DNA from: Escherichia coli
GTDB lineage: Bacteria; Pseudomonadota; Gammaproteobacteria; Enterobacterales; Enterobacteriaceae
Assembly: GCF_048403405.1 (NCBI RefSeq)
Contig: NZ_CP183129.1
Direction: 5' to 3' (one strand)
DNA: 64,000 nucleotides
Shown one piece after another: positions 30,201 to 32,830 of this stretch; positions within the stretch are counted from its first letter, which is position 1, and the number at the start of each line of letters is the position of its first letter. The position numbers are program-made.

Positions 30201-32830
30201 TGAATAATCCCCTGATGCTGTTCCGCCATGGTGGTGATGTTTTGCAGATTCAAATGCGGCAGCAAATGATCGGCAATTTTGTTACTTATGACAGTGCGGT
30301 TCGATTCCTGATCGTGAACCAGCAGGCCAAGCGGCAGCAGTGAGACTATCTCTTCATTGATTGCACGTAAAATGCGCAATTCGTTATTGACCGCCGTGCT
30401 GGGGACGTTTTCTGTACTGCGGCTGGAGAAATGGCGGAATGTGGTATAGCCAAATAACGCCAGCGCCAGCAAACCGATATTCAGCAGCAGTGGCAGCAGA
30501 ATGTTTTGCAACGTATCCAGCAGTAAGGTGCCATAAGGAACCTGCCAGACCAGGCGCATATCGGTAGAGTTGAGTGCCGAGGAGATTTCAATCTTCGTAC
30601 TGTTAAAGTGGATACTGACGCTATCCGTCCCTTCTTTCTCATTATCATTGTTTCCCGTTGCCGTCGCGTCTGGCTCAAGGCGGAAACTGTCCAGCGGCAT
30701 GCCCGGTGGGATCAAATCATTAATCGGCAGATCAAAAGCCACGACCGTTGCCAGATGTCCCGGCTGGTTAAAGGTAGTACGCAAGGTAAAGTAATGACCG
30801 TTCTGCCAGGCTAGGCGGCGCATGTTAGAAAAGCTTTCGCGTTCATCGAGGGCGTTGGCCTGTTGCAACATCTCTGCACGACGTGAATCAACAATGTCGC
30901 TGACGGTCGATTCTTTAAATCCGGAGGTGAGATCTTTAAGGGGCAGGGTTGAGATCAGCACCAGGCTGTTATCCTGACCATTCAGGTAATACATCGACCA
31001 CGGTACATTTTCTGCGCCCCACAATGTATCCAGATAAGTGGACATCCGTTGAGTCATCTCAAGCGTTGAGTTGTCGTGAGAGCCAAAGATTAACGCTTCC
31101 GTTTTGCGGCGCGGTTTTTCCAGATAGTAGACATCCTGTTTCAGGCGCGTCTCTTGTAAACCTTCGCCGGAGGAGGGGGAGGTCGTCGCGGCAATGTTGT
31201 CGTAGATCTGCCAGGTCACGTAACGCCAGGTATCGACGCGCTTTTGGATTGCGTGGGTAATGTCGACAATCTGGTAACTTTTATCTTTCAGCCAGGCGTT
31301 AACGGCGCTTTGTACCATTACTCCCATCGTCACCAGTAACACAATGATCAACAGTAAAAAGAAGCGGGTAATGCTCCCCGGTAGGAGTGAAAAGCGGGTC
31401 GTGGCCGTTGTCTCTTTCTGACGCATTCGTGTTTATGACCTGTTAAAACTTCGCGAAGTGATAGGGCAGTATAAAGGGTACAGTGTGAAATTCCAGACTC
31501 TTACCTGATTGATGATTCTCTATTCTCCCGTGATATTTATCATCCTGCATTGGGGGAAATAGATGTACAAGCGCCATTTTGCTGTACAAATAACCTACAA
31601 AAAGCCCAACGAAATTAATTGCAAATAAACGAAGATTGCTGGAAATTATGCTAATGTTAATTATTTGTGAAATAGTTAACAAGCGTTATAGTTTTTCTGT
31701 GGTAGCACAGAATAATGAAAAGTGTGTAAAGAAGGGTAAAAAAAACCGGATGCGAGGCATCCGGTTGAAATAGGGGTAAACAGACATTCAGAAATGAATG
31801 ACGGTAATAAATAAAGTTAATGATGATAGCGGGAGTTATTCTAGTTGCGAGTGAAGGTTTTGTTTTGACATTCAGTGCTGTCAAATACTTAAGAATAAGT
31901 TATTGATTTTACCCTTGAATTATTATTGCTTGATGTTAGGTGCTTATTTCGCCATTCCGCAATAATCTTAAAAAGTTCCCTTGTATTTACATTTTGAAAC
32001 ATCTATAGCGATAAATGAAACATCTTAAAAGTTTTAGTATCATATTCGTGTTGGATTATTCTGCATTTTTGGGGATAATGGACCTGCCGACTGATTAATG
32101 AGGGTTAATCAGTATGCAGTGGCATAAAAAAGCAAATAAAGGCATATAACAGAGGGTTAATAACATGAAAGTTAAAGTACTGTCCCTCCTGGTCCCAGCT
32201 CTGCTGGTAGCAGGCGCAGCAAACGCTGCTGAAATTTACAACAAAGACGGCAACAAATTAGATCTGTACGGTAAAGTTGACGGCCTGCACTATTTCTCCG
32301 ATAACGACTCTAAAGATGGCGATAAGACCTACATGCGTCTTGGCTTCAAAGGTGAAACTCAGGTTACTGATCAACTGACCGGTTATGGTCAGTGGGAATA
32401 TCAGATTCAAGGTAACGAACCTGAAAGTGACAATAGTTCCTGGACCCGTGTGGCATTCGCTGGTCTGAAATTCCAGGACGTTGGTTCTTTTGACTATGGT
32501 CGTAACTACGGCGTTGTTTACGATGTTACTTCCTGGACCGACGTACTGCCAGAATTCGGTGGTGATACCTACGATTCTGATAACTTCATGCAGCAGCGTG
32601 GTAACGGTTTCGCGACCTACCGTAACACCGACTTCTTCGGTCTGGTTGACGGTCTTGATTTTGCTGTTCAGTATCAGGGTAAAAACGGTAGTGCTCATGG
32701 CGAAGGTATGACCACTAATGGCCGTGATGATGTATTTGAGCAGAACGGTGACGGTGTTGGTGGTTCTATTACTTACAATTATGAAGGCTTTGGTATCGGT
32801 GCTGCAGTTTCCAGCTCCAAACGTACCTAG

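Follow-up and report, generated by a model that had tools for sequence, protein, structure and literature searches.

An amber-truncated ompC beside an intact micF, with a singleton substitution in the ompC −10 hexamer, in an Escherichia coli strain carrying gyrA S83L and D87N

At high osmolarity, OmpR-P represses the transcription of ompF and activates both ompC and micF. The small RNA MicF, whose expression is induced by OmpR, SoxS, MarA and Rob, carries a 5′ segment complementary to the translation-initiation region of ompF. Previous work indicates that EnvZ/OmpR acts on ompF and ompC mainly at transcription initiation, and that MicF adds an approximately 2-fold post-transcriptional repression when OmpR is over-produced (PMC5175337). 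In addition, a single change toward consensus in the −10 of ompF gives OmpR-independent transcription, and a companion paper treated the ompC Pribnow box too (review PMC2613000). According to a large survey of E. coli, ompC is inactivated in only 1–2% of isolates, and its inactivation is considered costly (PMC6970295). As for the origin of nonsense mutations, amber hotspots at Dcm sites were described in lacI (Coulondre et al. 1978, as reviewed in PMC12606429), and VSP repair is reported to promote CTAGG-to-CCAGG changes (PMC2715241).

The DNA analysed here is a 64-kb stretch of an E. coli chromosome (the window), which runs from the nrdA/yfaL/gyrA side to the rsuA/bcr side and carries the gene order rcsC–rcsB–rcsD / micF / ompC / apbE–ada–alkB around the locus; ompF, ompR/envZ, phoE and dcm/vsr lie outside it. 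The micF–ompC interval is flanked by rcsD (28754–31426, − strand) on one side and by ompC on the other. It was compared with K-12 MG1655, M217, WCHEC005237, MS 69-1 and TUM14771, the last of which is the nearest relative, and searched against 5,426 complete RefSeq E. coli genomes, a set from which the source strain itself is absent. Alignment of the 738-bp intergenic region with K-12 gave 10 substitutions, nine of which are lineage polymorphisms common to hundreds of genomes, while the tenth, at 32076 in the −10 of ompC, was found only in the window. Judged from its sequence, the interval reads as the standard divergent control region of E. coli, a known system, in which the change at 32076 appears to be the only unusual thing and is of uncertain significance. 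Two Rfam naRNA4 (REP-type) matches are also present in the window, one at 28001-28077 (+) between rcsC and rcsB and one at 39838-39920 (−) farther downstream.

The micF gene is located at 31738..31831 on the − strand, upstream of ompC (32165 onwards, +) and on the opposite strand, which is the same layout as in K-12. It matches Rfam RF00033 over its full length (model positions 1-94 of 94) and scores 116.8 bits (E 9.5e-18), the gathering score being 79. Its intrinsic terminator (31738..31766, −) is composed of a stem-loop at 31766-31744 followed by a T-run, and the terminator scan gave the hairpin 10 pairs, six of them G-C, with a loop of 3. Only one base of the gene differs from K-12, namely 31749, where a G·U pair of the K-12 terminator stem has become G–C; this difference is common to the relatives, and the 5′ antisense part is identical. 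The core promoter region of micF (31838..31881, −), which was read from the sequence, shows no difference from K-12 or M217, and contains a putative −10-like TAGAAT at 31843-31838 and a putative Mar/Sox/Rob-box-like stretch at 31881-31862. Upstream of micF, 80 bp equal those of K-12, out to 31911. Beyond them, at 31912 (about micF −81), the window has a C, a lineage polymorphism relative to K-12 that is common to many genomes. In gene, promoter region, 5′ antisense segment and terminator, micF is thus structurally wild type, and it should be transcribed and regulated normally.

Three OmpR boxes of 20 bp each, C1 (31986-32005), C2 (32006-32025) and C3 (32026-32045), all read on the + strand, are contiguous (31986..32045) and abut the −35 region of the ompC promoter. 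All three are exact string matches and are the same in K-12 MG1655 and the close relatives. The identity of C1 agrees with its published duplex sequence (PMC2586830). A T at 31984, 2 bp upstream of C1, is another lineage polymorphism relative to K-12 and common to many genomes. The presumed limits of C2 and C3 follow the OmpR literature. The boxes are intact and shared by both divergent promoters. The first-pass annotation had described micF with its terminator and the tandem OmpR boxes as unaltered, which is borne out by the full-length RF00033 match, the 10-pair hairpin with its T-run, and the exact K-12 sequence of C1–C3.

The ompC reading frame of the window (32165..32830, +) is composed of 221 codons followed by an amber stop, TAG at 32828–32830, so the truncation of ompC asserted in the same annotation is also confirmed. 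At this position the relatives have TGG (Trp222), and the five annotated relatives with TGG are all labelled as carrying an intact porin OmpC (allele WP_000865539.1). The intact 364-aa allele (24666-25757 of locus L005) aligns with the mature chain of PDB 2XE2 over 343/343 residues with no mismatch, and therefore the stop replaces precursor Trp222, which is mature Trp201. PDB 2XE2 is one of several closely related OmpC entries (2XE2, 2XE3, 2XE5 and 2XG6). The product comprises 221 of 364 residues, and its N-terminal 221 aa still match Porin_1; what is lost amounts to 143 of the 343 mature residues, the C-terminal strands included. A complete 16-strand barrel with a C-terminal strand ending in Phe (PF00267) is not encoded, with the stop at codon 222 of 364. 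Since the C-terminal strands are missing, no barrel can form, and this ompC would be a null allele. The untranslated remainder (32831..33259, +), which holds codons 223-364 and the original stop, has no other difference from the relatives.

The amber codon lies in a Dcm site, as sequence comparison of 32826..32830 shows CCTGG in the relatives and CCTAG in the window. Read on the other strand, the G->A at 32829 is a C->T in CCAGG, affecting its inner, methylated cytosine. The ompC gene carries nine Dcm sites, and four of the 18 possible deaminations give an amber codon (W93, Q104, W124 and W222), at window positions 32442, 32474, 32535 and 32829 for codons 93, 104, 124 and 222, respectively. 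Amber codons at all four of these positions of this ompC allele were found in public isolates and metagenomes (loci L006-L008, L028-L030, L036-L039 and L043-L044), and the W222 amber occurs on at least three flanking haplotypes (L006, L007 and L008). Exact-protein look-ups gave about 13, 21, 7 and 4 internal-stop contigs at the four Dcm sites, nearly all with TAG, against 4, 2 and 1 at three non-Dcm control codons, counts which are low and subject to confounding through clonal spread and the de-duplication of sequences. The Trp222 amber probably arose by C->T at the inner methylated cytosine of this Dcm site, a known hotspot of spontaneous mutation. Judging from these recurrences, identical ompC nonsense alleles may arise independently.

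The ompC core promoter (32051..32079, +) is composed of the −35 hexamer TTGGAT (32051-32056), a 17-bp spacer and the −10 hexamer GATAAT (32074-32079). Following the classical literature, 32074-32079 is assigned as the putative Pribnow box of ompC. The −35 and the spacer are ancestral, while the −10 has changed from GAGAAT to GATAAT by a G->T substitution at its third position (32076, +), raising its matches to the TATAAT consensus from 4/6 to 5/6. All comparators have G at this site, namely K-12, M217, WCHEC005237, MS 69-1 and TUM14771, together with 60 public contigs. The 5′ leader of ompC (32080..32164, +, with an approximate start) is the same as in the relatives. Within this leader, 32084 is a C/T lineage polymorphism relative to K-12.

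The T at 32076 is a singleton in every set searched. A 34-mer spanning −35 to −10 with T gave zero matches in the 5,426 complete E. coli genomes, in a search that needed an exact 28-base word across 32076, and a 61-mer centred on 32076 was matched exactly by none of 5,352 genomes. When G replaced T in the 34-mer as a positive control, 5,349 of the 5,350 complete genomes with a match carried it exactly. Because the window has T against 5,349/5,350 exact ancestral cores, the core promoter of ompC appears essentially invariant in the species, with the window as the sole exception seen at the −10. The first-pass annotation had also held the ompC promoter to be unaltered, and this part of it is refuted by the G->T change. 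T at 32076 is likewise absent from 50 further public contigs with this ompC 5′ end, 17 of which bear ompC nonsense mutations of their own, none accompanied by a core-promoter substitution at 32076. The only other core-promoter variant among the 50 is a shortened spacer in locus L035 (Logan ERR8433038), in which T5->T4 leaves 16 bp in place of 17. Matches to the mutant −10 string, nine in species-representative genomes and one in JGI metagenomes, came from unrelated taxa at chance frequency and were set aside; locus L025 has nothing in common with the window beyond the 21-mer. Resemblance of GATAAT to a Fur box was also rejected, one hexamer being far below what Fur needs. In the literature searched, no ompC −10 mutation in clinical isolates was found, and the ompC promoters sequenced from six isolates were reported without mutations (PMC7177473).

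The strain context was taken from the comparison with TUM14771, from which the whole 64 kb differs by five substitutions and two single-base homopolymer indels. One substitution, G/A at 513, is intergenic, between ypaB (357-500) and yfaL (925-4677). Two fall in gyrA (+, start 5607), for which TUM14771 is wild type: C→T at 5854 gives S83L (codon 83 TTG) and G→A at 5865 gives D87N (codon 87 AAC). The remaining two are the G→T at 32076 and the G→A at 32829 in ompC. S83L with D87N is the classical fluoroquinolone-resistance pair, and at least three of the five changes are of a kind for which antibiotic selection is textbook knowledge, and therefore a drug-exposed lineage is indicated. The gyrA pair would mark this lineage as drug-selected, and porin loss would fit that history.

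The two indels are A6→A7 at 11450, which splits yfaS (alpha-2-macroglobulin family, 10715-15230; 1,504 aa) into two frames and for which MS 69-1 also has A6, and C5→C4 at 61146, which splits radD/yejH (60570-62329, −), leaving frames of 402 and 193 aa. Public assemblies, short-read ones included, contain the longer radD fragment (402 aa) in 54 blocks, so that this frameshift is a genuine lineage variant of wide occurrence. Two guessed N-terminal fragments of yfaS are not on record in public assemblies, for which the choice of gene start may account, and the A7 may be either real or an assembly error. The indels were tried as a gauge of assembly quality and gave no clear signal, with the radD indel real and the yfaS fragments without a match. 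Elsewhere in the window, atoE has 10 bp (19299-19308), shared with TUM14771, that are absent from MS 69-1 (about 11810 of locus L004); the atoE of MS 69-1 is annotated as frameshifted, and that of the window is intact.

Taken together, the locus is probably best explained as a standard control region next to an amber-null ompC, with a single −10 change, in a drug-selected lineage. As to what the −10 change would do, a generic sigma-70 scan misses the ompC promoter in both alleles, ancestral and mutant, because the −35 matches only 3/6, and so cannot score the change. The third −10 position is less critical than the first, second or sixth, and therefore only a modest effect is expected. By comparison with the consensus, GATAAT would have a modestly higher basal activity and some loss of dependence on OmpR, and with the amber downstream it could not restore OmpC. 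We infer no visible route from this change to altered micF expression, the site being about 250 bp from the start of micF.

How the substitution came to be there allows several readings. The one that survives best, although we would rate it somewhat short of an even chance, takes the T for noise, that is, either an error of the assembly consensus or a neutral substitution at the promoter of an already-dead gene. It is consistent with the T being absent from all other sequences examined, with the relaxed purifying selection to which a pseudogene promoter would be subject, and with a homopolymer A6->A7 in the same assembly that splits yfaS into frames for which neither of two candidate fragment sequences has a public record. 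However, a random error or neutral event falling in this 6-bp hexamer within 64 kb has a chance of about 1e-4 per event, and 32076 lies in no homopolymer, Dam or Dcm motif. The second homopolymer indel, that of radD, is genuine and occurs widely among short-read assemblies, so that the assembly is not obviously error-prone.

A second reading, possible but rather doubtful, holds the −10 change to be adaptive, a promoter-up and less OmpR-dependent ompC allele that was selected either before or after the amber. If before, it would have restored porin in a background of low OmpF or low OmpR activity, and later beta-lactam exposure would have selected the hotspot amber; if after, it would boost rare read-through or prepare for reversion. 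The location is highly non-random in this respect, as the 29-bp core promoter makes up 4.5e-4 of the window, is essentially invariant species-wide, and was hit in a genome stretch where at least three of only five substitutions relative to TUM14771 fall at classical resistance targets. Moreover, the hexamer has moved closer to consensus, as it did in the ompF mutants that no longer depend on OmpR, and a Dcm-site amber may revert more readily, given the CTAGG-to-CCAGG changes promoted by VSP repair (PMC2715241). Against this reading, the core promoter is unchanged in all 17 other public contigs whose ompC bears a nonsense mutation, and it is not obvious what benefit stronger expression of a null gene would bring. 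The order of the two events was also sought in locus L007, which equals the window except for G at 32076 and could suggest that the amber preceded the −10 change. Such an order was rejected because the G,A haplotype of L007 spans only 5.1 kb, a stretch common to hundreds of genomes, and because the amber is recurrent.

Less probable than either is the reading with which the locus was initially described, in which the regulatory region is fully wild type and it is the intact micF that leaves the cell short of both porins when osmolarity is high. Its premises hold in part, with micF and the OmpR boxes unaltered and ompC cut short, but the −10 hexamer has changed, and MicF is minor against the transcriptional repression of ompF (PMC5175337). 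Because ompF is controlled mainly at transcription, ompF would fall at high osmolarity regardless of the integrity of micF. Under such conditions the strain would be porin-poor mainly via OmpR-P repression of ompF transcription, with MicF taking a smaller share. On this analysis, the first-pass annotation appears to over-credit MicF, while its porin-poor conclusion is reasonable, and low levels of both porins at high osmolarity are a plausible textbook extrapolation. However, ompC mutants often compensate by making more OmpF, and this would soften the prediction that both porins are low.

It was further speculated that the −10 change was selected for relaxed OmpR dependence and that the Dcm amber, revertible via VSP repair, acts with it as a mutational on/off switch; we consider this very unlikely, and if it were true, no other sequenced E. 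coli would have an ompC whose "on" state is set as high. Finally, that OmpC is still made through amber suppression or read-through is hardly credible: one base separates the gene from the intact allele and the remaining frame is undamaged, but natural read-through of UAG is low, and no suppressor tRNA was found in the window, where tRNA-Pro is the sole tRNA.

In the preferred explanation, a conventional control region next to an amber-null ompC, the locus represents a known system with an ordinary porin loss, and its allele is uncommon, not novel. A dead ompC beside an intact micF is what any ompC nonsense mutation gives and is routine, and clinical lineages resistant to fluoroquinolones are well known to lose porins. 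What sets the strain apart is that an ompC core promoter nearly frozen across the species is broken in it, by a change toward consensus. Provided that the substitution is real and active, it would parallel in nature the OmpR-independent porin promoters obtained in the laboratory. The amber, for its part, would help explain identical ompC nonsense alleles in unrelated strains through its Dcm hotspot, and such recurrence matters when these alleles serve as markers of clonal descent in resistance surveillance.

Compared with the systems described before, K-12 is the closest. The gene order of K-12 micF (b4439) and ompC (b2215) is the same, with micF divergent from ompC, and the window agrees with it fully in the antisense segment and promoter region of micF, in OmpR boxes C1-C3 and in the −35 hexamer; K-12 differs in its −10 at 32076 and in having no amber codon in ompC. 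The lacI hotspots (Coulondre, Miller, Farabaugh & Gilbert 1978) likewise arise by G:C-to-A:T at the second C of CCAGG and yield amber codons, but in lacI the change turns CAG (Gln) into TAG, whereas in the ompC of the window it is the non-coding strand that carries the methylated C, and TGG (Trp) becomes TAG. In multidrug-resistant Enterobacterales, porin loss (ompC/ompF of E. coli and ompK36/ompK35 of Klebsiella) similarly involves a major porin inactivated by nonsense mutation. The lesion in the window co-occurs with gyrA S83L and D87N; in the survey cited above, ompC was usually modified and seldom inactivated, and ompF was the commoner loss (PMC6970295). As for the promoter, in the Pribnow-box "up" mutants of ompF and ompC a single base moves a weak, activator-dependent −10 toward TATAAT, as it does in the window. 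Such mutants were reportedly described by Dairi et al. in 1985 and Ozawa et al. in 1987. The published ompF "up" change lies at the first position of the hexamer (−12), whereas that of the window lies at the third position of the ompC hexamer.
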